Shown piece by piece: positions 998 to 57,560 of a stretch of DNA of 64,000 nucleotides (position 1 is the first letter of the stretch; each line of letters begins with the position of its first letter). Where the stretch lies: the NCBI GenBank assembly GCA_964016885.1, contig OZ024748.1:1860001-1924000 (forward strand). The letters run 5' to 3'. The translations under genes were made by a program, and so were the position numbers. The notes beneath the pieces were generated by a model. That model saw nothing but the letters and a program-made list of their open reading frames with translations, searched no databases and was not told where the DNA came from. This stretch comes from Eledone cirrhosa. Taxonomy: Eukaryota.

Positions 998-1471
998 TAG
1001 TGGTTCCTAAACTTATTTAATAACTTGCCCAAAAATGCAGAACCCACATTTACATTTTACAATCCCCAACATTCTAATTTTAATAAGACATAAAATAAAA
1101 ATGTTTTAAAAAGAGAATTTAGTCATATAAAAGATAAAAAAAACAAACATCTAATACAATTTTATTAAATTTCATTAGTTCTTAACAACTTTTAATGATT
1201 TAGTAGAAAATATTTAAAAGCAGGTTTGTTAATTCAAATGTTTATAGCATCTTTATTAGTGGACAGATTGTGCACAAATTTGCAGTAAAATAAAGTATAC
1301 ACTTCAATTTTTAATGTGATGCACCATAATGCTGATTTGTACTTTTCAAAAGTCTTGCTAATGCATTGTTTTGTTAAGAATTAAAACACACCGTATCTTT
1401 CAAAAACCCTTAGATTTTGTTTTTGCTGAGCCCCAGAATATTTTCAAGAGAATTCACTTTGAGGAACACTG
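998..1471. mobile_element. Non-autonomous hAT (Charlie-like) DNA transposon / MITE
   Basis: Termini tagtggttcctaaactt ... cactttgaggaacactg resemble CAGTGGTTCCCAA-type TIRs. Flanks tccttgat / ccctagat match at 6 of 8 positions and resemble the nTCTAGAn target. The internal segment recurs at 2081-2257 and 54186-54265. Confidence 0.55.
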
Positions 1472-5666: not shown

Positions 5667-5861
5667 ATAGGAAAAAGTATGACCCCCGACGGCAGAGCTC
5701 AAGCCGTTTCGACGTCTATTTCTTGGTCCAGAAATAGCCGTCGAAACGGCTTGAGCTCTGCCGTCGGGGTCATACTTTTTCCTATTTCCCACTCTACTAC
5801 TCTAAGTATTGAGTACTCTGGTGCGTAATGGTCCATCTGTTTCCTTACCACATTTCCTTTG
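5667..5861 (+). mobile_element. Fold-back hammerhead-bearing element, family B (3' half of ribozyme)
   Basis: Inverted arms 5667-5723 / 5730-5785, then a ~76-nt tail. The right arm has GAAA cggc-ttgagctct-gccg TC gggg. Homologous to 46015-46147 and 9662-9952. TA tracts on both sides. Confidence 0.8.
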
Positions 5862-5886
5862 TATATATATGTGTGTGTGTGTGTGA

Positions 5887-6150
5887 AGGCGCATGGTTTA
5901 GTGGTTAGAGCATTGAGCTTGCAATCGAAAGGTTGTGAGTTCAATTCTCGGACCGGGTGATGTGTTTTTTCCTTGAGCAAGACACTTTATTTCACATTGC
6001 TCCAGTTTACTCAGCTGTAGAAATGAGTACCAGCCTGCCCGCCCAGCCAGTGGGATGGCATTATCTTATGGCTAAAACAGCACGACGTGCTGTGACCAGC
6101 GGCGCGGATTGGCGCCCGACAGACTGGTCGGTCAAGGTGATCAAGGTGAT
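5887..6150 (+). mobile_element. tRNA-derived CORE-type SINE, young copy
   Basis: A-box tggtttagtggttag, B-box gagttcaattc, ccttgagcaagacactttatttcacattgctccag core; ends in (caaggtgat)2 before (AT)n. Confidence 0.85.
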
Positions 6151-7916: not shown

Positions 7917-8291
7917 ATCACCGTTTTATGTCCGTTTTTCCATGCTAGCATGGGTTAGACGGTTTGTCCTGTTGGGGGCAGTGTCAGGTCGGCTGACCTT
8001 GTCTTGCTCATAGAGGAACTGATTCTGGCTCGATTTCTACAGCTGGATGCCCTTCCTAACACCAACCTCATTTACAGTGAGTGCTAACTGCTTTTTTTCC
8101 GTGACACCTCTTTTGCATTGGAATGATAGGGACCCCAGTCCCTATCATCTCATTTCTACAGCTGAGTAAACTGGAGCAATGTGAAATAAAGTGTCTTGCT
8201 CAAGGAAACAACACATCACCCGGTCTGAGAATTGAACTCACAACCTTTCGATTGCACGGCCAATGCTCTAACCACTAAGCCATGTGCCTCC
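7917..8291 (-). mobile_element. Full-length tRNA-CORE SINE with RTE-derived 3' end
   Basis: Head at 8291 matches the 5887 SINE. Contains ggttggtgttaggaagggcatccagctgtagaaa and the ccatgctagcatgg tail shared with the RTE 3' UTR at 43206-43557. Confidence 0.85.
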
Positions 8292-8347
8292 AGCAGGTGT
8301 GTGGGTATATGTATATATGTGTTGTGTACATATGTGTGTGTGAGTTT

Positions 8348-8678: not shown

Positions 8679-9436
8679 CATAAATTCTATAAAATGCACA
8701 CAAGAGATGTAGTGGGATAGCAGGCAAGCTAACAGGTAGGGAGAAATACGTATGCAGTAGATGTACAGGGAAATTAGACAGTAGAAGTCGCATTGATAGA
8801 CACATTTTTCAAATGCAGGCGGGTGCTATAGAAGTGGTTGATAGCTTCAGTACCTAGGAGATCAGATTAGCATGGGAGGGGGGTGTTCTGAGGCCATAGT
8901 ATCTAGAATAAGGACGGGTTGGGAAGAAGTTTAGGGAGCTGCTTCCTCTGCTGACGAAGAAGGGTTTCTCCCTGCATATGAAAGGCCGGTTATATGATGC
9001 CTGTGTGAGGAGCACGATGCTGCATGGTAGTGAGACATGGGCAGCAACTGCAGAGGATATGCGACGGCTGGAGAGAAATGAGGCAAGCATGCTCCGTTGG
9101 ATGTGCAATGTCAATGTGTGTGAACGACCCAGCATGAATGTGTTGAGGGATAGAATGTAGTGTGAGAGAGAGGAGACTGAGGTGGTATGGACATGTGATG
9201 CGCATGGAGGATGACCGATGGGTGAAGAAGTGCCAGGACATGCCAGTTGAAGGAAAATGTGGTAGAGGTAGACCACGAAAAAAATGGGCGGAGGTGGTGA
9301 GAACAGACCTCAGATCGCTGAAGCTCATGGTGGAGATGACGAAGGACCGTGACAAGTGGAGAGATGCTGTGCTGAATAAGACCCGTCCCACCCTTGCAGG
9401 CAGGGAAGAGCAGACGTAAAATAATGATGATGATGA
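8678..9436 (+). mobile_element. Decayed RTE LINE 3' fragment (second subfamily, short 3' UTR)
   Basis: Translates to HKRCSGIAGKLT..CSRC, MKGRLYDACVRSTMLHGSETW and RRLRWYGHVMRM..GRGRPRKKW, with frameshifts and deletions; (GAT)n tail. Confidence 0.9.
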
Positions 9437-9661
9437 TTATATATATATATATATAACAAATTAAGAGCACAGAAATAAGTTCTTAAATCATTTAACTCTT
9501 ACAATTGTTTCAATACAAATTATTCTTCAAACACAGAACTAGGTGTGTGAGTGTGTGTGTCTGTATGCATATGTGTATATATGTGTGTGTGTGTCTATAT
9601 ATGTGTGTGTATATATATATATTTATTGTATCTATATGTGTATGTGTATGTATACGTAGAT

Positions 9662-9952
9662 ATAGAACCAGTTTGAAACTGGTTGGACCATTACTTAAGA
9701 GAGTACTTGATACTTGGGGTAGTAGCATATGACTATATTATAAAGTGTCATGACCCTACGGCTGAGCTCTTGCCATACAACAGGTAGTTCCAGACTTGTT
9801 TGCCGAAAGGCTTCACATAAAATTTACCCTTATATGGACAAACCATATCCTCATTGACACAGCCAGTAAACCACGAAACCCTTCAGCAAACAGTCTGGAA
9901 GTAGCTGTTGAAATGGCAAGAGCTCAGTCTTTGGATCCCGATTCTTGGTAAT
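9662..9952 (-). mobile_element. Diverged family-B fold-back element
   Basis: 9675-9756 aligns to the reverse complement of the family-B tail (ggaccat..gagtact..gggtagtag..atgaccc). Imperfect inverted arms ~9737-9814 / 9875-9952. The plus arm has TTGAC..acagc/gctgtt GAAA tggc-aagagctca-gtc. Confidence 0.7.
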
Positions 9953-10001
9953 TTATATATATATATACCTAAATATATATGTATATATATGTATATGTGT
10001 G

Positions 10002-21381: not shown

Positions 21382-22400
21382 ACATCCGGCCTGGATGTTG
21401 TGGGACCAACATAACTGTACATTGAAAGGGGCGGTGTGGAGGTGGTGGGACGGGGGGGGGGTGTTTTGATAGAGATGCCTACTGACTGTAGTAGGTTTTT
21501 ACTTTGTATTTAGGTAAGGCGGGTCTTCTCTATTACTGAGTACCGCCAAAGGTCTCGGTCCAGTGACATTGTCTTGGAGAGGTGTAAGTGTGTGAGGTCG
21601 GAATTTATCAGCTCGTCCCATGTTTTTTCTGGGTCTGCCTACTCCGTGGCTACCGTCTATCTTTATTGCCCTGCACTTTGTTATACAGCTGTCGTCTTTC
21701 ATGCGCATCACGTGACCGTACCAACGTAGCCTTCTCTCGAGTAAACAACATCTGATCCCTCTTATTTCTAATTTTTTCCTTAGTTCGTTTATGCTTTGCC
21801 GTTCACGTATATTACTATTGCACATCCAGCGGAGCATGCAAGCTTCGTTCCTCTCTAGTCTGCGTATATCCTCTGCACACAATGCCCAGGTCTCACTGCC
21901 ATGCAGCATTGCTGTTCGTATGCAGGCATCGTATAACCTGCCTTTCATTTTTAGGGATAACCCTCTAGCGGCTAATAGTGGTATAAGCTCTCTGAACTTT
22001 TTCCATCCAGTTCTGACTCTAGCTACTGTACTCTCAGAGCACCCTCCCCCACTGCTGATTTTGTCACCCAGGTAACGGAAGCTGTCCACTATTTCTATAG
22101 AACCCTCTGCGCAGTTGAAGGAGCTAGTATTTTGTGGGCACTTGCTGCTACTTATTGCACCAGAGCACTGGCCACATGTAAAATCTATGTTCTTAGTTAG
22201 CTTACCTGTGATCCCACTACATCTTTTATGCACCCATACTTTGCATTTGGGACATAAAATGGAGTTTCTACCTACGCCTTTCCTACACACTGAGCATGGC
22301 CATTTCCCAGATGGGACTGCCGCCATATTTTCTTTCCTACAAACTAGAACTTTAGTCTTAGCCAGGTTAATTTTAAGGCCTTTTGATTCTAGGCCGTGCT
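21382..22400 (-). mobile_element. RTE LINE fragment (PHD finger to partial 3' UTR)
   Basis: ORF 21499-22326 is nearly identical to the C-terminal part of ORF 43558-45510, with a frameshift near 21620. Confidence 0.95.
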
Positions 22401-27070: not shown

Positions 27071-27332
27071 ATGAATTGGTTCCTTGAAAAAAAATCGGAA
27101 TAAATGCTGTAAGGTTTTGCCATCTCTATGGTGATGATGATGATGGTGGTTATATATGACACTTTTACTGAATTCTTTCATGTATCAGCAGTAATTCTTA
27201 GAAAGTACTTTTAATGGTGAAGTTTAATGTTTTGGAAAACGGAAATATTACAAATCTCTTCTTGTTTTTCTTTTAAATCTACTTTTTACTTATTTACTTT
27301 CCCTGTGAATGACTTATCTTTTTCTAAATAAA

Positions 27333-30300
27333 TTGAAGGGTAAGGTGTCTCGTTGATCATATCTTGAGTAATATTGGAGGGCAAGGTGTCTTGTTGATCA
27401 TATCTTGAGTAATATTGGAGGGCAAGGTGTCTTGTTGATCATATCTTGAGTAATATTGGAGGGCAAGGTGTCTTGTTGATCATATCTTGAGTAATATTGG
27501 AGGGCAAGGTGTCTCGTTGATCATATCTTGAGTAATATTGGAGGGAAAGGTGTCTTGTTGATCATATCTTGAATAATATTGGAGGGCAAGGTGTCTCGTT
27601 GATCATATCTTGAGTAATATTGGAGGGAAAGGTGTCTTGTTGATCATATCTTGAGTAATATTGGAGGGAAAGGTGTCTTGTTGATCATATCTTGAATAAT
27701 ATTGGAGGGCAAGGTCTCTTGTTGATCATATCTTGAGTAATATTGGAGGGAAAGGTGTCTTGTTGATCATATCTTGAGTAATATTGGAGGGAAAGGTGTC
27801 TTGTTGATCATATCTTGAGTAATATTGGAGGGAAAGGTGTCTTGTTGATCATATCTTGAGTAATATTGGAGGGAAAGGTGTCTTGTTGATCATATCTTGA
27901 GTAATATTGGAGGGAAAGGTGTCTTGTTGATCATATCTTGAATAATATTGGAGGGCAAGGTCTCTTGTTGATCATATCTTGAGTAATATTGGAGGGAAAG
28001 GTCTCTTGTTGATCATATCTTGAGTAATATTGAAGAGTAAGGTGTCTTGTTGATCATATCTTGAGTAATATTGGAGGGAAAGGTCTCTTGTTGATCATAT
28101 CTTGAGTAATATTGGAGGGAAAGGTGTCTCGTTGATCATATCTTGAGTAATATTGGAGGGAAAGGTGTCTTGTTGATCATATCTTGAGTAATATTGGAGG
28201 GAAAGGTCTCTTGTTGATCATATCTTGAGTAATATTGGAGGGAAAGGTCTCTTGTTGATCATATCTTGAGTAATATTGAAGAGTAAGGTGTCTTGTTGAT
28301 CATATCTTGAGTAATATTGGAGGGAAAGGTCTCTTGTTGATCATATCTTGAGTAATATTGGAGGGAAAGGTGTCTCGTTGATCATATCTTGAGTAATATT
28401 GGAGGGAAAGGTCTCTTGTTGATCATATCTTGAGTAATATTGAAGAGTAAGGTGTCTTGTTGATCATATCTTGAGTAATATTGGAGGGAAAGGTCTCTTG
28501 TTGATCATATCTTGAGTAATATTGAAGAGTAAGGTGTCTTGTTGATCATATCTTGAGTAATATTGGAGGGAAAGGTCTCTTGTTGATCATATCTTGAGTA
28601 ATATTGAAGAGTAAGGTGTCTTGTTGATCATATCTTGAGTAATATTGGAGGGAAAGGTGTCTCGTTGATCATATCTTGAGTAATATTGGAGGGAAAGGTG
28701 TCTTGTTGATCATATCTTGAGTAATATTGGAGGGAAAGGTCTCTTGTTGATCATATCTTGAGTAATATTGGAGGGAAAGGTCTCTTGTTGATCATATCTT
28801 GAGTAATATTGGAGGGAAAGGTGTCTCGTTGATCATATCTTGAGTAATATTGGAGGGAAAGGTGTCTTGTTGATCATATCTTGAGTAATATTGGAGGGTA
28901 AGGTCTCTTGTTGATCATATCTTGAGTAATATTGGAGGGTAAGGTGTCTTGTTGATCATATCTTGAGTAATATTAGAGGGTAAGGTGTCTCGTTGATCAT
29001 ATCTTGAGTAATATTGGAGGGAAAGGTGTCTTGTTGATCATATCTTGAGTAATATTGAAGAGTAAGGTGTCTCGTTGATCATATCTTGAGTAATATTGGA
29101 GGGAAAGGTGTCTTGTTGATCATATCTTGAGTAATATTGAAGAGTAAGGTGTCTTGTTGATCATATCTTGAGTAATATTGGAGGGAAAGGTGTCTTGTTG
29201 ATCATATCTTGAGTAATATTGGAGGGAAAGGTGTCTTGTTGATCATATCTTGAGTAATATTGGAGGGAAAGGTGTCTTGTTGATCATATCTTGAGTAATA
29301 TTGGAGGGAAAGGTGTCTCGTTGATCATATCTTGAGTAATATTGGAGGGAAAGGTGTCTTGTTGATCATATCTTGAGTAATATTGGAGGGAAAGGTGTCT
29401 TGTTGATCATATCTTGAGTAATATTGGAGGGAAAGGTGTCTTGTTGATCATATCTTGAGTAATATTGGAGGGAAAGGTGTCTTGTTGATCATATCTTGAG
29501 TAATATTGGAGGTAAAGGTGTCTTGTTGATCATATCTTGAGTAATATTGGAGGGAAAGGTGTCTTGTTGATCATATCTTGAGTAATATTGGAAGGTAAGG
29601 TGTCTTGTTGATCATATCTTGAGTAATATTGGAGGGCAAGGTGTCTTGTTGATCATATCTTGAGTAATATTGGAGGGTAAGGTGTCTTGTTGATCATATC
29701 TTGAGTAATATTGGAGGGTAAGGACTCTTGTTGATCATATCTTGAGTAATATTGGAGGGAAAGGTGTCTTGTTGATCATATCTTGAGTAATATTGGAGGG
29801 CAAGGTGTCTTGTTGATCATATCTTGAGTAATATTGGAGGGCAAGGTGTCTTGTTGATCATATCTTGAGTAATATTGGAGGGCAAGGTGTCTTGTTGATC
29901 ATATCTTGAGTAATATTGGAGGGAAAGGTGTCTTGTTGATCATATCTTGAGTAATATTGGAGGGAAAGGTGTCTTGTTGATCATATCTTGAGTAATATTG
30001 GAGGGAAAGGTGTCTTGTTGATCATATCTTGAGTAATATTGGAGGGAAAGGTGTCTTGTTGATCATATCTTGAGTAATATTGGAGGGAAAGGTGTCTTGT
30101 TGATCATATCTTGAGTAATATTGGAGGGAAAGGTGTCTTGTTGATCATATCTTGAGTAATATTGGAGGGAAAGGTGTCTTGTTGATCATATCTTGAGTAA
30201 TATTGGAGGGAAAGGTGTCTTGTTGATCATATCTTGAGTAATATTGAAGAGTAAGGTGTCTCGTTGATCATATCTTGAGTAATATTGGAGGGAAAGGTGT

Positions 30301-31024
30301 CTTGTTGATCATATCTTGAGTAATATTGGAGGGAAAGGTGTCTTGTTGATCATATCTTGAGTAATATTGGAGGGAAAGGTGTCTTGTTGATCATATCTTG
30401 AGTAATATTGAAGGGCAAGGTGTCTTGTTGATCATATCTTGAGTAATATTGAAGAGTAAGGTGTCTTGTTGATCATATCTTGAGTAATATTGGAGGGTAA
30501 GGTGTCTTGTTGATCATATCTTGAGTAATATTGGAGGGTAAGGACTCTTGTTGATCATATCTTGAGTAATATTGGAGGGAAAGGTGTCTTGTTGATCATA
30601 TCTTGAGTAATATTGGAGGGAAAGGTCTCTTGTTGATCATATCTTGAGTAATATTGAAGAGTAAGGTGTCTTGTTGATCATATCTTGAGTAATATTGGAG
30701 GGAAAGGTGTCTTGTTGATCATATCTTGAGTAATATTGGAGGGTAAGGACTCTTGTTGATCATATCTTGAGTAATATTGAAGAGTAAGGTGTCTTGTTGA
30801 TCATATCTTGAGTAATATTGGAGGGAAAGGTGTCTTGTTGATCATATCTTGAGTAATATTGGAGGGCAAGGTGTCTTGTTGATCATATCTTGAGTAATAT
30901 TGGAGGGCAAGGTGTCTTGTTGATCATATCTTGAGTAATATTGAAGAGTAAGGTGTCTTGTTGATCATATCTTGAGTAATATTGAAGAGTAAGGTGTCTC
31001 GTTGATCATATCTTGAGTAATATT
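27333..31024. repeat. 41-bp minisatellite, ~90 copies
   Basis: Unit ggagggaaaggtgtcttgttgatcatatcttgagtaatatt, with a few recurring variants (ggagggc/t, gaagagt, ggtctc, ctcgtt). Confidence 0.98.
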
Positions 31025-31082
31025 CAATCAATTATGTGTGAGTTTTGGGGAAGAGAGTTGTGTATGTGGACAGGTGTGTGTG

Positions 31083-43205: not shown

Positions 43206-45518
43206 ATCATCATCATCATCATCAACGTTTAACGTCCGTGTTCCACGCTTGCATGGGTTTGGACGGGGGTAGTCCCACTTGAGGCAAGAGTGATTGTCTT
43301 GCTCGCATAGGACTGTCTGGCAGGTTTTCTACAGTTGGATGCCCTTCCTAACACCAACCACATTTACAGTGTGGGTCTGGGAGGTTTTTACCGTGTTGCC
43401 TACACGGCCACATTACAGCGTGGACTGTGTGTTTTTTTGTCGTGACACCTACACGATCTCATTTGTTTCGGCCTGGATGGCGCGGCACCAACATAACTTT
43501 ACATAGAACGGGGTGGTGTGGATGGGGTGGGGGTGGCGGCGGGAGGGGTGTATTTTGTTAGAGATGCCTACTGGCAAGGCGGGTCTTCTCTGTTACTGAG
43601 TACCGCCAAAGGTCACGGTCCAGTGACATTGTCTTGGAGAGGTGTAAGTGTGTGAGGTCGGAGTTTATCAGCTCATCCCATGTTTTTCTAGGTCTGCCTA
43701 TTCCGTGGCTACCGTCTATCTTTATTGCCCTGCACTTTGTAATACAGCTATCGACTTTCATGCGCATCACGTGTCCATACCAACGCAGCCTTCTCTCGAG
43801 TAAACAACATCTGATCCCTCTTATCTCTAATTTTTTCCTTAGTTCGTTTATGCTTTGCCGTTCACGTATATTACTGTTACACATCCAGCGGAGCATGCAA
43901 GCTTCGTTCCTCTCTAGTCTGCGTATATCCTCTGCACACAATGCCCAGGTCTCACTACCATGCAACATTGCTGTTCGTATGCAGGCATCGTACAACCTGC
44001 CTTTCATTTTTAGGGAGAACCCTTTAGCAGCTAATAGTGGTATAAGCTCTCTGAACTTTTTCCAACCAGTTCTGACTCTAGCTACAGTACTTTCAGAGCA
44101 CCCTCCCCCACTGCTGATTTTATCGCCCAGGTAACGGAAGCTGTCCACTATTTCTATAAAACCCTCTGCGCAATTGAAAGAGCTAGTATTTTGTGGGCAC
44201 TTGCTGCTACTTATTGCACCAGAACACCGGCCACATGTAAAGTCTATGTTCTTAGTTAGCTTACCTGTGATCCCACTACATCTTTTATGCACCCATACTT
44301 TGCATTTAGGACATAAGATGGAGTTTCTACCTACGCCTTTCCTACATACCGAGCACGACCATTTCCCAGAAGGGACCGCCGCCTTGTTTTCTTTCCTACA
44401 AACTAGAACTTTGGTCTTAGCCAGGTTAATTTTAAGTCCTTTTGACTCTAGGCCGTGCTTCCATGTTTGGAATTTCTTCTCTAGCTCGGCCATTGATTCC
44501 GCTATGAGTGTCAGGTCGTCTGCGTATAGGAGTTCCCATGGGCAGCCTGTCTTGAACTCCTCTGTTATAGCCTGAAGGGCAATAATAAATAGTAGGGGGC
44601 TGAGAACAGAGCCCTGATGGACGCCAACTTTTACGCTAAACTCTTCACTATATTCGTTGTTAATTCTAACCTTGCTGACTGTTTCTTTATACATGGCTTG
44701 TATAGCCCTCACAAGCCATTCGTCAACGCCTAGTTTTCTAAGAGCCCACCAGATAATGGAGCGGGGGACTCTGTCGAAGGCTTTCTCCAGGTCGACAAAA
44801 GCTAAGTAGAGGGGTTTACCTTTAGCTAGGTACTTCTCCTGTAGTTGTCGTACTATGAAAAGAGCGTCTGTGGTGCTTTTGCCTGACACAAACCCGAACT
44901 GCATTTCATCTAGATCAATTCTCTCTCTGATTAGTTGCGCTATTACTTTTTCCGTGACCTTCATGACCTGGTCGATTAATTTAATGCCTCTATAGTTACT
45001 CCTATCTAGGGCGTCTCCTGTACCCTTATAACAGTTAACGATGATGCTGCTATGCCAGTCCTTCGGAACAACCCCATTCTGTACGACTTGGTTAACTATG
45101 CGGGTGACCATGGTGTGTCCCACCGTGCCAGATGCCTTCAGCATCTCAGCAACTATTTCCGAAGGCCCAGCCGCCTTACCAGTCTTCATATCCTTGATTG
45201 CCTTACTTATTATACTCCCCTCGACTAACACTGCTGGTCCCTCTATCGGGTCGATATGGGGGAGACTGTCTTTCTCCCATTTATTCTCCTCATTTAGTAG
45301 CCTTTCATAGTGACACTTCCAAGCTACCTTCTTATCAGTGTCGGTGATGGCAAGTATGCCATCATCGTTAAGTACACACTTCTCCCCGACAATATCACGG
45401 TTTTCCTTGACGCATTGCCTGGCAATCCTGAACACCTCACGTTTTTGGTCATCGCGTTGTAGAACATGCTTGAACTTTCTTTCCTCAGCTTCCCTTCTTG
45501 CTAAGTACACTTCTCTCC

Positions 45519-45520
<2 letters not shown>
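43206..45520 (-). mobile_element. Young 5'-truncated RTE-clade LINE in (TA)n
   Basis: Uninterrupted RT ORF, ~350-nt 3' UTR, (GAT)n tail, TA tracts on both sides; lacks the APE endonuclease. Confidence 0.97.
43558..45519 (-). CDS. RTE reverse transcriptase (5'-truncated) with inserted PHD-type zinc finger
   Basis: NYRGIKL, QFGF, FVDLEKAFDRV, QGSVLSPLLF, YADD, GLKINLAKTK, FRYLG, RRLRWYGHVMRM, GRPRKTW. C4HC3 finger at 44224-44355. The listed start is GTG at the truncation point, not a real initiator. Confidence 0.95.
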
Positions 45521-45550
<30 letters not shown>

Positions 45551-45552
<2 letters not shown>

Positions 45553-46147
45553 GGAGAGAGAGTATGACCCTGTAGAACAATAGGGGTGTGAGTGGAGCGG
45601 TCAAGCTTTGAAAGTGATAACAGCAGATTCTAAGGATAGTGTATGAGGAGGGAGGTTATAGAATAGGTAAATCGAATTTTTTTTTTTTTTTTTTTTCTAT
45701 TATCTTTTATTATCTCCTACTCTCATTTGATTTACCTATTCTATAACCTCCCTCCTCCACTTTATACACTATCCTTAGAATCTGCTGTATACATATGACT
45801 TTCAATGTTTGACCACCGCTCCACTCACTCCCCTATTGTTCTACAGGCAAGTTCAGCCACCCCTACCTCCCACCAAATGCCATGATAGACTTATTTGTGT
45901 TTACAACAAATTTTAACCAATCCTCTTGACAACTACAATCTTCCCATATAAGGAAGTACCCCCTTGACAAGTTCGGCTATTTATTCACCAGGCTAAAAAT
46001 TCTAATTTAGTCCACAAATAGCCGTCGAGGCGGCTTGAGTTCTGCCGTCGGGGTCATACTTTTGCCTATTTCCCACTCTACTACCCTATGTATTGAGTAC
46101 TCTGATGCGTTATGGTCCATCTGGTTCCTTACCACAATTCCTTTGTT
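45551..46147 (+). mobile_element. Longest family-B fold-back element
   Basis: Starts taggagagagagtatgaccc (inverse of 46051-46069). Inverted arms ~45569-45673 / 45729-45847, then the hammerhead and the same tail as 5786-5861. Confidence 0.8.
45960..46053 (+). ncRNA. Hammerhead with U3-A8 core, extended stem II and full stem III (GAAA mutated in this copy)
   Basis: cccc UUGACAA g-tt-cggctattt..[ggctaaa/tttagtc hairpin]..aaatagccg-t-c GAGG cggc-ttgagttct-gccg UC gggg. The sister copy at 5743-5746 has GAAA. Confidence 0.65.
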
Positions 46148-46185: not shown

Positions 46186-46515
46186 ATCATCATCATCATC
46201 ATTTTACGTCCGCTTTTCCCTGCTTGCAAGGGTGGGACGGCAACTGATTCTGGCTTGATTTCTACAGCTGGATGCCCTTCTTAACACCAACCTCATTTAC
46301 AGTGAGTGCTGGGTGCTTTTTTGCCGTGGCACCTGCACGACCACTTTGTAGTGGAATGATATGGACCCCAGTCCCTATCATCTCATTTCTACAGCTGAGT
46401 AAACTGGAGCAATGTGAAATAAAGTGTCTTGCTCAAGGAAACAACACATCACCCGGTCTGAGAATTGAACTTCGATTGCAAGGCCAATGCTCTAACCACT
46501 AAGCCATGTGCCTCC
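46186..46515 (-). mobile_element. Full-length tRNA-CORE SINE with type-2 RTE tail
   Basis: Head and core are nearly identical to 8130-8291; the tail cccacccttgcaagcagggaaaagcggacgtaaaa(TGA)n matches the RTE end at 9385-9436. Confidence 0.9.
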
Positions 46516-47788: not shown

Positions 47789-47992
47789 ATATATATACAT
47801 ATATATATATATATACATATATATATGTATATATATATTGTTATACTTTGGGAGGGTCATGTTGCCAATAAGAAACACACGCACCAGTTGCTTTCACTTC
47901 AATTTATTATATATTTATAAATTTACAAATCTACAAACTTATAAATTTCTAGTTGGTTGGTTGGTTCCACAACTAGATAGTTGTTTATATAT

Positions 47993-48037
47993 AGTCATAG
48001 TCCTTTCGTCACACACTCTGTGACCTCTTCAGTGACT
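47993..48037 (-). ncRNA. Minimal type I hammerhead ribozyme in the PLE pLTR
   Basis: Minus: agtca CUGAAGA g gtcaca-gagtg-tgtgac GAAA ggac UA tgact. 5-bp stem I, 6-bp stem II, CUA triplet, same strand as the ORF. Confidence 0.85.
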
Positions 48038-48278
48038 GGGGATTCCTTTCTTTGTTTCTGTGCTTTTCCTTTCTTCTATCCTACGCCATTTTGTTTCTGT
48101 GTGTGTGTTGTGTGCTCAGTTTGCGCATGCGCCACATCCGGGTGTCTGTGTGTGTTTGTGTTCATTTATCTATTTGTTTATTTATTTATTTATTTATTGT
48201 TGGTTGGTTGTTTGTTCTATGTGTGTGTGTGTTTTCATTTTGTCCTGTGTGTGTTTTCATTTTGTCCTGTGTGTGTTT

Positions 48279-49220
48279 TCATTTTGTCCTTAATTGTAAG
48301 TTGTGATGTTGTAATTCTTTTATGCTTACTGCCTCTGTAATTTGCCTAAACATTGCATCTTTTCTGTGTGTGGATTCTATTTTTATTTCTATGTTCTCTA
48401 ATCTACTCCTGTGTTCTATCTTAGCATGTTGGTAGAGCACAGATGATTCTTTATTATCTTGAAGGTCTCGCCAGTGTTCATTTATTCGTTCCCCTATACT
48501 ACGAGCTATCTCACCTATGTACACTATATTTTTGTTTCTACATTGTCCTTCAGTACATCTTATGCTATACACTACATTTCTAGTTTTACAGTTAATATGG
48601 GGGCTTATTTTACAGGTTATACATTTCTTATCTATACATTATGGTCTTTGGAACGGGTATGTCTTGCTAATAAGTGTTTTTACGGAGGTACCTGGTCTTT
48701 CTACTATCTTAATATTGAGTTTATGTTTATTTAGGGCCCTTCTAAATTTGTAGGCTAGTTCGCCTCTAGGGGTTGTATTGATGAACATTACACTCTGGTA
48801 TTTATTGCTATCATACCATGAGTTTATTCTATTGGCCTTGTTCCTAGTTCTTTCTATTCTATTCCAAAATTTGCTCCTATACAAGGGGCAGGTCCCATTT
48901 ATGTCATTATTTACCATTTTTTCCCATTTGGTTCTGGCTCCTTTATACACTCTGATTCTATCTCTCTGATTGTAGCCAGAGAACTGCATACGGTGGATGA
49001 AGTGTTGTATGTGTCTCTCTAGTTCTTCGGGGTTGCACATGCGGGACACATTTCTCATCACCCGTACCAAATCCGCAATCAGTATGTTGATTTTGGTATG
49101 GTCCGAAATGGCCGAGTTTCGGTGGATCAGATGTTTGGAAGTCATGGGTTTGGCATAATGGGAATGGAGGATTTGTTTTTGGTTGTTAATGGTATCTAAC
49201 CAGAGCTCTGTGTCTAGTAT
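48279..49220 (-). pseudogene. PLE RT-thumb / CxxxxCxxC / GIY-YIG endonuclease ORF with one in-frame TAA (48639-48641)
   Basis: Single frame: ILDTELW..HYAKPM..SA..K..IL..R..RN.S ... YPFQRP*CIDKKCITCKISPHINCKTRNVVYSIRC..C..YIGE..R...R..EH..HAKIEH..RQITEAV.I. Confidence 0.9.
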
Positions 49221-54981: not shown

Positions 54982-55879
54982 TATGTCTCATACCAGACAA
55001 TAGCTTACAATATATTATATAACAGACTACAGCTGACTATATGTCATATACCAGACTACAGCTGACTATATGTCATATACCAGACTACAGCTGACTGTCA
55101 TATACCAGACTACAGCTGATTGTCATATACCAGACTACAGCTGATTGTCATATACCAGACTACAGCTGATTGTCATATACCAGACTACAGCTGATTGTCA
55201 TATACCAGACTACAGCTGACTGTCATATACCAGACTACAGCTGACTGTCATATACCAGACTACAGCTGATTGTCATATACCAGACTACAGCTGACTATAT
55301 GTCATATACCAGACTACAGCTGACGATATGTCATATACCAGACTACAGCTGACGATATGTCATATACCAGACTACAGCTGACGATATGTCATATACCAGA
55401 CTACAGCTGACGATATGTCATATACCAGACTACAGCTGACGATATGTCATATACCAGACTACAGCTGACGATATGTCATATACCAGACTACAGCTGACGA
55501 TATGTCATATACCAGACTACAGCTGACGATATGTCATATACCAGACTACAGCTGACGATATGTCATATACCAGACTACAGCTGACGATATGTCATATACC
55601 AGACTACAGCTGACTATATGTCATATACCAGACTACAGCTGACTATATGTCATATACCAGACTACAGCTGACTATATGTCATATACCAGACTACAGCTGA
55701 CTATATGTCATATACCAGACTACAGCTGACTATATGTCATATACCAGACTACAGCTGACTATATGTCATATACCAGACTACAGCTGACTATATGTCATAT
55801 ACCAGACTACAGCTGACTATATGTCATATACCAGACTACAGCTGACTATATGTCATATACCAGACTACAGCTGACTATG
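54982..55879. repeat. 29-bp minisatellite (~31 copies) with 25-bp deletion variant
   Basis: Unit atgtcatataccagactacagctgactat; variants arranged in blocks. Confidence 0.97.
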
Positions 55880-56564
55880 TTACATTTACGAGACTACTGT
55901 ATTTATGTTTAGTATGCAGAATGTTCCCCTGAGGTATTTTCCATCAGCCATATTGTTGATAAGAAGTTTCATCTAATCCAAAGAGTTTATTTTCCTCAGT
56001 CTGCTGTGTATCAATTACTTATTCAAAACAGAACCAGAAAGAACTCATATATATAATTGGCTATGGTGTGTAGGTGTGTGGTGGTGTGTGTGTATGTGTG
56101 TCTACGTGAGAGAAATAGATTGTATGTGTGTGTGTGTGTGCACGTGAGAGAGAGAGAAGAGATATAGATGTGTGTATGTGAGAGAGAGAGAGATGTATAT
56201 ATATATATGTATATATAGAGAGAGAGATCGGACCAATAAGACAGAAGCTGCTAGTGAAATGCTGTTAATGGAAGAGAAGAGCATTAGAGAAGGAATGTAG
56301 TAACTAATGAGAAATAAATATTAAGGGATAATAAAATTGTTATTGAGCTAGGAGAGGGGGAGAGATATGTATAACAACGTTTGTAAGGTTGTTATGTTTA
56401 CATGTTGTTTTTTAACCAATTAACTGTCTGTTTGAAACCCAATCAGTAACGGTTAACTGAACCTCATCATACATTTATTTATTTTATTAGTCTGTCACAG
56501 TTGTAATTACATTTTCATTCCGTTTAAGATATTATAATAATAATAATGATAATAGTAATAATAA

Positions 56565-56759: not shown

Positions 56760-57560
56760 AAGATATTGGGAACAATATAAGGACAAAAACAATTCAGAGT
56801 AGGTTTACACCGAGTAAAGGAAAGGGGACAGAACTGAAGAGAAAATAGTAGGAATAACAAGAACAAATGTCAACAAGAACAAGTTCCTCAATAGTAGGGA
56901 GAATTGCACTTTAGAGTAATTCCAGGGTGAAACCTGGGCTACTTGAAAGTGCCCTTACTCAGTTTCTTTCCCCCTACTTAGAAAAGTGTAGAGTTTGGCC
57001 CATTCAGCCTCATCAATCTCATTGCTCTCACCCATCTTTCATAAGGCAGCCCCTCCCTCTCTACCCTCTACTCCCTCTTCACATGGAACTTGAAGATGTT
57101 GATGAGGCCCAGTGATTCCTGTCATCAATCATTTTAGGCAAGTCCGCAACACAGCTTCCTTTGCCATAGCTACCAGACAGAGGAAGACTTGCTATGCCCC
57201 CCCCCCCCCGCCGTTCACTGTAGACCCAGCTGATAGTAGGATCTCTCCTTCACATAATAGCAATAGCTTGATACAGGCCCACAACTGTTCAATGCACGGG
57301 CAATTGGTGATAGCATGCAAGATGGCTTCATCGCCCTGCATACATTTCAGAGAAGTCTGGCTGATGGCACTTCCATGCCTGTAGAGCTTGTCTTGAATTT
57401 GTAGAGCTCCTCTGTAGAACTGCCATACCAAGGGTTTTTGAAAATTGTCCATAATCCCTGACCTGAACGTCCTCCAGAAGAGCCTCTTCTGTCTGTCCTT
57501 GTCAATGCTCAGAGATTCTCCCAGACCATCATCGCTCATACTAACCTTCTATAGAAGATT
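56760..57560 (-). mobile_element. Decayed L1/Tx1-type LINE 3' fragment
   Basis: W..YRGAL...DKL.RHG...S..(C)..C...DE...HA...C...LW resembles the C-terminal zinc-knuckle (zf-RVT) region; T-rich 3' UTR on the minus strand. Confidence 0.7.

Follow-up and report, generated by a model that had tools for sequence, protein, structure and literature searches.

An insertion at 45550-46143 of a 64,000-nucleotide stretch of Eledone cirrhosa DNA (GCA_964016885.1, contig OZ024748.1; the window), flanked by (TA)n runs, raises the question of whether its repeat family encodes a hammerhead ribozyme with an unusual U3-A8 core and, if so, whether that ribozyme would act alone, as a dimer, or not at all. The preliminary description of this repeat (family B) had placed the motif at 45960-46053 and regarded the family consensus as a monomer-competent variant. 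The reading favored here, with a probability of roughly 0.6, is that of a decayed copy of a type I U3-A8 hammerhead in the terminal repeat of a likely Penelope-like element (PLE), whose intact copies would be slow cleavers after GUC, aided by dimerization or by a protein.

Direct reading of the sequence places a type I hammerhead topology at 45954-46061, with the core positions and the three stems all in register (Table 1). This agrees with the anatomy first proposed, except that stem I extends past the earlier limits and that stem II, formerly called branched, is a long stem interrupted by a 2x1 loop (after its first pair) and an 8x3 loop, with no branched junction. In stem I, a C/UCA internal loop separates the inner strands, CCCC (45960-63) and GGGG (46050-53), from a distal helix formed by AAGUA (45954-58) and UACUU (46057-61). 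With the family-majority letters, predicted pairing is 0.97-0.99 for four of the five distal pairs, while the proximal 4 bp reach 0.56, with a further 0.35 in a shifted register. Stem II is closed by G10.1 (45971, followed by UU) and C11.1 (46026, preceded by U); its 9-bp part consists of CGGCUAUUU (45974-82) paired with AAAUAGCCG (46016-24), and its inner hairpin lies at 45991-46012. Predicted pairing is 0.56-0.98 in the 9-bp part, and only 0.06 for the lone G10.1-C11.1 pair. The G-C part of stem III is made of CGGC (46031-34) and GCCG (46044-47) around the 9-nt loop, the palindrome of which is altered in this copy by a single C>U change at 46040; U16.1 (46048) lies within the GUC at 46047-49.

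Table 1. Coordinates of the hammerhead motif, of the surrounding repeat, and of related insertions in the window.
Feature	Position	Strand	Basis
Stem I, 5' strand: AAGUA, unpaired C, CCCC	45954..45963	+	Sequence and predicted pairing
Core U3-U4-G5-A6-N7-A8-A9, UUGACAA (U3 = 45964)	45964..45970	+	Sequence; run variants
Stem II, 56 nt: G10.1-C11.1, 2x1 loop, 9 bp, 8x3 loop, 7-bp hairpin	45971..46026	+	Sequence, folding
G12-A13-A14-A15.1: GAGG in this copy, GAAA in the family	46027..46030	+	Sequence, runs
Helix III, 19 nt: 5 bp, 9-nt loop with GAGCUC palindrome	46030..46048	+	Sequence, runs, folding
C17, predicted cleavage site (3' of C17)	46049	+	Position in the topology; inference
Stem I, 3' strand: GGGG, UCA, UACUU	46050..46061	+	Sequence, predicted pairing
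Optional 74-nt tail between two alternative 3' ends running into (TA)n	46070..46143	+	Loose ends
Upstream pyrimidine-rich part of the repeat	45705..45953	+	X1 depth 20-100 times below the tail
Inverted 5' arm of the same insertion, ending at the 46069-equivalent	45550..45677	-	Sequence comparison
Sister insertion: fold-back palindrome 5667-5785 (120 nt) and tail	5667..5860	+	Hammerhead 5' half absent
Family C, diverged and decayed relative, palindromic insertion	9660..9955	.	nhmmer E=6e-6

The motif is not a chance arrangement. Its fold has a z-score of -2.79, none of 200 shuffled sequences being equally stable, and a descriptor, fitted to the motif after the fact, gave one match in the 64-kb window and none in 150 block-wise dinucleotide shuffles. 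Rfam returned no match at E<=10 over 45800-46146, hammerhead families included; for the whole window, microsatellite-driven miRNA matches were among the 150 matches listed out of 405. The window is DNA of animal type, rich in microsatellites, and also holds large minisatellites at 27327-31027 and 54982-55897, with units of about 41 nt and 50-58 nt. As stated earlier, CUGANGA-based searches would miss a core reading UUGACAA, and no CUGANGA is present within the repeat that could give a permuted canonical hammerhead. Stem I has an internal loop, but loop II lies more than 20 bp from the core, and no tertiary contact between loop I and loop II is recognizable. At 46021-46034, the 3' strand of stem II and the 5' strand of stem III can pair as an alternative hairpin over GAA, a possible off state.

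The letters of the family were obtained from four of 13 sequencing runs, consisting of contigs of three organism labels (X1, X4, and X6) and of RAD reads (X11). In all four, G>A accounts for 92-100% of the depth at both 46029 and 46030, yielding GAAA for the family, T>C for 95-100% at 46040, yielding the loop palindrome GAGCUC, and C>G for about 85-100% at 46015. This copy carries private changes at these four positions of the motif. The runs bear out the consensus that had been supposed, with GAAA present, A8 kept, and N7 variable; the latter (45968) is C or A, with A in 38% of the X1 depth. The A>G places counted (three in X1, three in X4, and one in X6) are all located outside A8, so that no A8G is found at 10% or more in these three runs, while one A>G place of X11 lies outside the variant positions listed. 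A minor U3C variant may exist in X1, two T>C places of which fall outside those listed.

The Watson-Crick pair between positions 3 and 8 is U3-A8 in this copy, and also in record 13 of X4 (another organism label, depth 23), which spans 45916-46054 free of gaps and with four other letters. Since all X4 contigs differ from this copy at 46015, 46029, 46030, and 46040, this record represents an intact UUGACAA/GAAA/GAGCUC/GUC motif. The family possesses G12-A13-A14-A15.1 and an NUH site, a set from which this copy departs with its GAGG. Changes at A14 and A15.1 are expected to kill hammerhead cleavage. With both turned into G, this copy is decayed and probably dead, as the preliminary description had it. 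The sister copy cited there at 5743 does have GAAA, but it forms the right-hand side of a fold-back palindrome of 120 nt, lacks the 5' half of the hammerhead, and is, for that reason, uninformative on U3-A8.

Family C differs from family B, by eye, in one G-C to A-U change in stem II and in wobbles in stem III. Its plus arm contains UUGACA (9854-59), GAAA (9910-13), and an AA-GAGCUC-A loop, without the tail, which is present on the minus arm, and its fold is no better than that of shuffled sequences (z=+1.2). RNAalifold, given two sequences (families B and C), did not recover the hammerhead fold; the sole fold common to both was the alternative hairpin over GAA, which family C maintains by means of wobbles.

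U3-A8 had been introduced as a known variant, which is correct, and it is moreover a published PLE variant (PMC4209133). A predicted reason for its presence is offered by the C3-G8 swap. With all four N7 bases and in two contexts, the hammerhead-compatible fold is predicted at 0.000-0.003 after the swap versus 0.16-0.29 before, these figures describing secondary structure without tertiary terms. U3-A8 would be locked in according to this model, because, once C3-G8 is in place, the loop-III palindrome is predicted to capture positions 8-10, and the strand across the cut to capture positions 3-7. The U3C/A8G swap, formerly suggested as a control, is predicted to misfold and is, therefore, not a clean one.

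Dimer-type PLE hammerheads are characterized by a palindromic helix III (PMC4209133, PMC3088659). The majority form of loop III in the family is UU-GAGCUC-U, and the palindrome is kept with three sets of flanks: UU/U, CG/A (from the loose-end consensus of 49 contigs and 1122 reads), and AA/A (from both family C arms). For the 19-nt helix III, the predicted energy is -26.9 kcal/mol as a homodimer versus 2 x -6.5 kcal/mol as hairpins, a gain of 13.9 kcal/mol, and the dimer energy ranks in the top 3% of 3780 loop permutations. Because 6% of random 9-mers hold a 6-nt palindrome, the weight of this one lies in its conservation, over three variants only. The long stem III had been thought to set the family apart from dimer-type PLE hammerheads. 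This is not supported in that form: with the conserved GAGCUC in loop III, the dimer fold typical of PLEs is retained and, according to prediction, favored. Nevertheless, dimerization is not needed for folding, because stem III itself (four G-C pairs and A15.1-U16.1) forms in the monomer, with a predicted probability of 0.7-0.98 for the family letters. The motif thereby shows one feature of the dimer type, the palindromic helix or loop III, and not the other, a helix III whose shortness prevents its formation in the monomer, as it has 5 bp. Monomer competence, as claimed at the outset, stands as far as helix III closing alone is concerned; against it are the conserved loop palindrome and the competing folds that are predicted. 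In the fold of lowest predicted energy, the core pairs as a continuation of the end of stem II, and folding of a 294-nt context abolishes stem I (predicted P<=0.03).

In the favored reading, intact copies would cleave slowly after GUC, probably with the aid of two copies pairing via their palindromic helices III, or of a protein of the element. The 3' ends of the repeat bear on this proposal. Loose ends are found behind 46069 in 47 contigs of X1, 884 reads of X11, and one contig of X4, and behind 46143 in 143 contigs of X1 and 6869 reads of X11. Both ends lie downstream of the predicted cut (+20 and +94 nt), so the likely template of every genomic copy with the full motif was RNA that had remained uncleaved or been re-ligated; a weak and conditional ribozyme would fit this need. 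The X1 depth is about 20-60 thousand at the 5' end and climbs to 3.5 million near 46120. At the predicted cut, the depth step is gradual, and no read or contig start is found among those listed. Matches to the stretch were obtained for 19,738 of 12.5 million RAD reads, which suggests copies on the order of ten thousand, about a twentieth of them reaching the 5' half of the motif, a rough estimate since RAD reads are not random. Piles of X11 read ends at 45909-12, 46004-07, and 46139 were discarded as digestion artefacts, being on AATT sites of the presumed RAD-library enzyme.

An inverted arm without the tail is part of each of the three related insertions of the window (45550, 5667, and 9660-9955), and both family B inverted arms stop at the 46069-equivalent. 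In the insertion with the motif, this arm joins the 45846-47 region straight to the G run after the predicted cut. The joint, at 45568-45570, fuses CUACAG (45846) to the post-cut G run, about 204 nt being skipped and the G count being one short. A template jump on a cleaved RNA or a simple deletion at GG may explain this joint, which was seen once (n=1) and is absent from the joints listed for reads. Of the 12 joints listed, seven change strand. The upstream pyrimidine-rich part includes a putative 3'-splice-site-like YnCUACAG/G at 45846, right after which a 12-mer (45848-45859) is identical at 10 of 12 positions to 45968-45979, at the core/stem II junction. The tails of families B and C have TAATGGTCCA in common (46110-46120, and 9672-9682 on the minus strand), with an ATG opening a short frame that runs to the element end; it is possibly an ORF start or a protein-binding site. 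Copies of tRNA-like SINEs stand beside family B ends in (TA)n runs (5884-6027, 8017-8292, and 46242-46440).

Family B is likely a PLE, a membership that we infer from architecture because no ORF could be linked to the family. It resembles PLEs in its (TA)n targets, in the steep 5' truncation of its copies, in their inverted 5' arms, and in a tail with two 3' ends. Known features of PLEs include 5'-truncated arms in inverted orientation, a tail at one of the two ends, and insertion into (TA)n, the last preference being described for the Neptune, Hydra, and Naiad clades (Craig et al., PMC8557442), and the optional PLE tail lies between two RT start sites (Frangieh et al., PMC11167929). The family tail measures 74 nt, versus 30-40 nt described for the PLE tail. 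No RT or GIY-YIG frame was found beside family B or C (158/207 complex frames), with the exception of an unrelated LINE. This 680-codon frame, which adjoins the motif, was rejected as the family ORF: it belongs to an RTE-type LINE (RVT_1 E=2e-32, plus PHD). The LINE has a PHD finger inside its RT ORF (PHD E=3e-5), occupies 43469-45519 on the minus strand, and is also found at 21387-22400 and 8807-9380; its 5' break mirrors the end of the family B inverted arm across the (TA)n run. A zf-RVT fragment of another LINE lies at 57195-57548 on the minus strand (E=2e-7).

A Neptune-like PLE remnant, probably the family A of the preliminary description, is present at 47845-49217 on the minus strand. 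It comprises an RT C-terminus, a CxxC finger, and a GIY-YIG domain (PF20815, E=0.011; 48% to the endonuclease of P0002), with one in-frame stop, and the best of its 21 protein relatives is an Octopus vulgaris protein (67%). A canonical minimal hammerhead follows (C3 at 48032), made of CUGAAGA, a 6-bp stem II, and GAAA-GGAC-UA. Since it comes with this hammerhead of its own and its DNA does not resemble family B, the remnant was rejected as the parent of family B. None of the 21 relatives starts like the short ATG frame of the family B tail (first 40 residues), and none is found in viral contigs. Pattern scans gave no family copy in viral contigs or in metagenome contigs, the single pattern match in a viral contig (L001) being unrelated, GC-rich, and due to chance. 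A scan of six metagenome PLE loci yielded one downstream U3-A8 minimal motif and one weak upstream match, and a long helix III like that of family B in none of the six, several of which come without a 3' flank. The U3-A8 minimal hammerhead is at 1229-1290 (plus strand) of metagenome contig L004, about 100 nt after a Neptune-like PLE ORF.

Other explanations have to be weighed against a slow, assisted cleaver. It is rather unlikely that the family motif is an efficient monomeric ribozyme, which its 5-bp stem III would free from dimerization, the loop palindrome being a relic. The predicted formation of stem III alone speaks for it, as do the distal helix and internal loop of stem I, which resemble canonical type I motifs, and the fungal PLE hammerheads with a large helix III, described as cleaving well as monomers (PMC4209133). 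A relic is, however, hard to reconcile with a palindrome conserved while its flanks change; in addition, loop II lies much too far away to make the usual contact with loop I, the lone G10.1-C11.1 pair adjoining the 2x1 loop is predicted to form poorly, and the competing fold takes the core onto stem II, with stem I lost in the longer context. When a helix III was added to the Schistosoma minimal motif, cleavage was seen mostly at non-physiological Mg2+ (PMC4209133). A combined mode of action is doubtful: helix III would close alone, and both the loop palindrome and the hairpin over GAAA would be selected, so that tandem copies or a protein trigger cleavage, with U3-A8 locked by the palindrome; decayed UUGANAA/GAAA parts in Octopus Naiads would then mean that 'hammerhead-less' PLE clades hold overlooked variants.

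A non-catalytic role, as a three-way junction or hammerhead relic by which an element protein would recognize its RNA near the RT start sites, with UUGAC-GUCGA extending stem II, is also unlikely. This extension is the predicted minimum-energy fold, and the Naiad_Ovul and Naiad_Obim 3' ends are, by eye, arranged in like order (UUGACAC ... GUC-GAAA-C, stem, stem), with a perfect 8-bp extension and without a UH site. Family C likewise reads UUGACAC, the hairpin over GAA is the only fold that RNAalifold shares between families B and C, and PAc hammerhead mutants still insert in vitro (PMC11167929). Yet family B keeps all catalytic positions, including GUC, in exact register, and the variable base is precisely N7, where variation breaks the extension pairing; moreover, family C is decayed, and the Naiad likeness was drawn by eye. 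A non-LTR retrozyme, in which tandem non-coding units give rise to circular RNA, in place of a PLE terminal repeat, is very unlikely. Although no copy in the window has an ORF, and animal retrozymes have been argued to derive from pLTRs (bioRxiv 10.64898/2026.07.22.740005), head-to-tail tandems of 200-400 nt units are absent from the window and not evident in the joints listed, which are mostly strand changes or skips, and the depth, which tandem units would keep flat along each unit, declines steadily toward the 5' end.

Among known systems, the minimal hammerheads of the Schistosoma mansoni Cercyon PLEs are those for which U3-A8 has been published, with about 1,300 matches (Cervera and de la Pena 2014, PMC4209133) and two U3-A8 examples in the supplement. 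They share with family B the type I topology, U3-A8, G10.1-C11.1, an enlarged helix II, a palindromic helix III, and dispersed single and opposite-strand copies. They differ by a helix III of about 4 nt, a stem II of 4-8 bp, and an extra base after A9 (PMC4209133), whereas family B has a 19-nt helix III, a 56-nt stem II, and no extra base there. Natural U3-A8 hammerheads with the same covariation are stated to be active in vitro, apparently in another architecture and host than those of family B, and Aedes motifs with a palindromic stem or loop III are drawn as dimers (Perreault et al. 2011, PMC3088659). The hammerheads of Hydra-clade PLEs also have (TA)n targets, a position near the 3' end, and, in animals, palindromic stems III of 3-4 bp; those with four pairs include that of the Octopus bimaculoides element Hydra-1_oBim (Craig et al. 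2021, PMC8557442 File S2). In contrast to family B, the cores listed there are all CUGANGA, loops III have 1-3 nt, and stem II is short.

PAc, a Poseidon element of Anolis, has its hammerhead upstream of two RT start sites bounding an optional tail, and AT-rich targets, as family B does, but with a C3-G8 core, a minimal helix III, a motif overlapping the ORF start, and a tail of 30-40 nt; this hammerhead depends on protein and is not required for insertion in vitro (Frangieh et al. 2024, PMC11167929). Fungal and protist PLE hammerheads resemble family B in their large helix III, variable helices I and II, and lack of a recognizable tertiary contact, the loop I-loop II contact being generally absent in the PLE variants described in PMC4209133. 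They differ in that they belong to EN-deficient telomeric PLEs outside animals, and are active as monomers (PMC4209133). Identity of family B with a published Naiad 3' end was rejected, as the family 13-mer is absent from the published Naiad consensus set (PMC8557442 supplement) and the sequences differ by eye. In that supplement, the 3' ends of Naiad_Obim, Naiad_Ovul, and one more Naiad have an unusual order, with GAAA before CUGANGA, and the authors flagged the Naiad hammerhead-like parts only as half cores.

Animal helices III reach about 10 nt in two published tables (PMC4209133 supplement and PMC8557442 File S2), and the available parts of neither contain a 19-nt helix III, a 56-nt stem II, and U3-A8 together. 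The available main text of the O. vulgaris repeat paper has no mention of hammerheads, and family B was not found in the published papers that were searched. The role of the hammerhead in PLEs is an open question, these ribozymes being weak, often dimer- or protein-dependent, and dispensable in vitro. A high-copy animal family, with a helix III foldable either alone or as a dimer, bears directly on whether selection maintains dimerization for regulation or a short stem simply imposes it, and CUGANGA descriptors with a 7-17 nt spacer under-count PLE ribozymes. Each single feature of family B has a published precedent, the hammerhead chemistry is unchanged, and no new class is involved; what appears to be new is the co-occurrence of U3-A8, a helix III of 19 nt, and a stem II of 56 nt, together with the predicted misfolding of the C3-G8 form.
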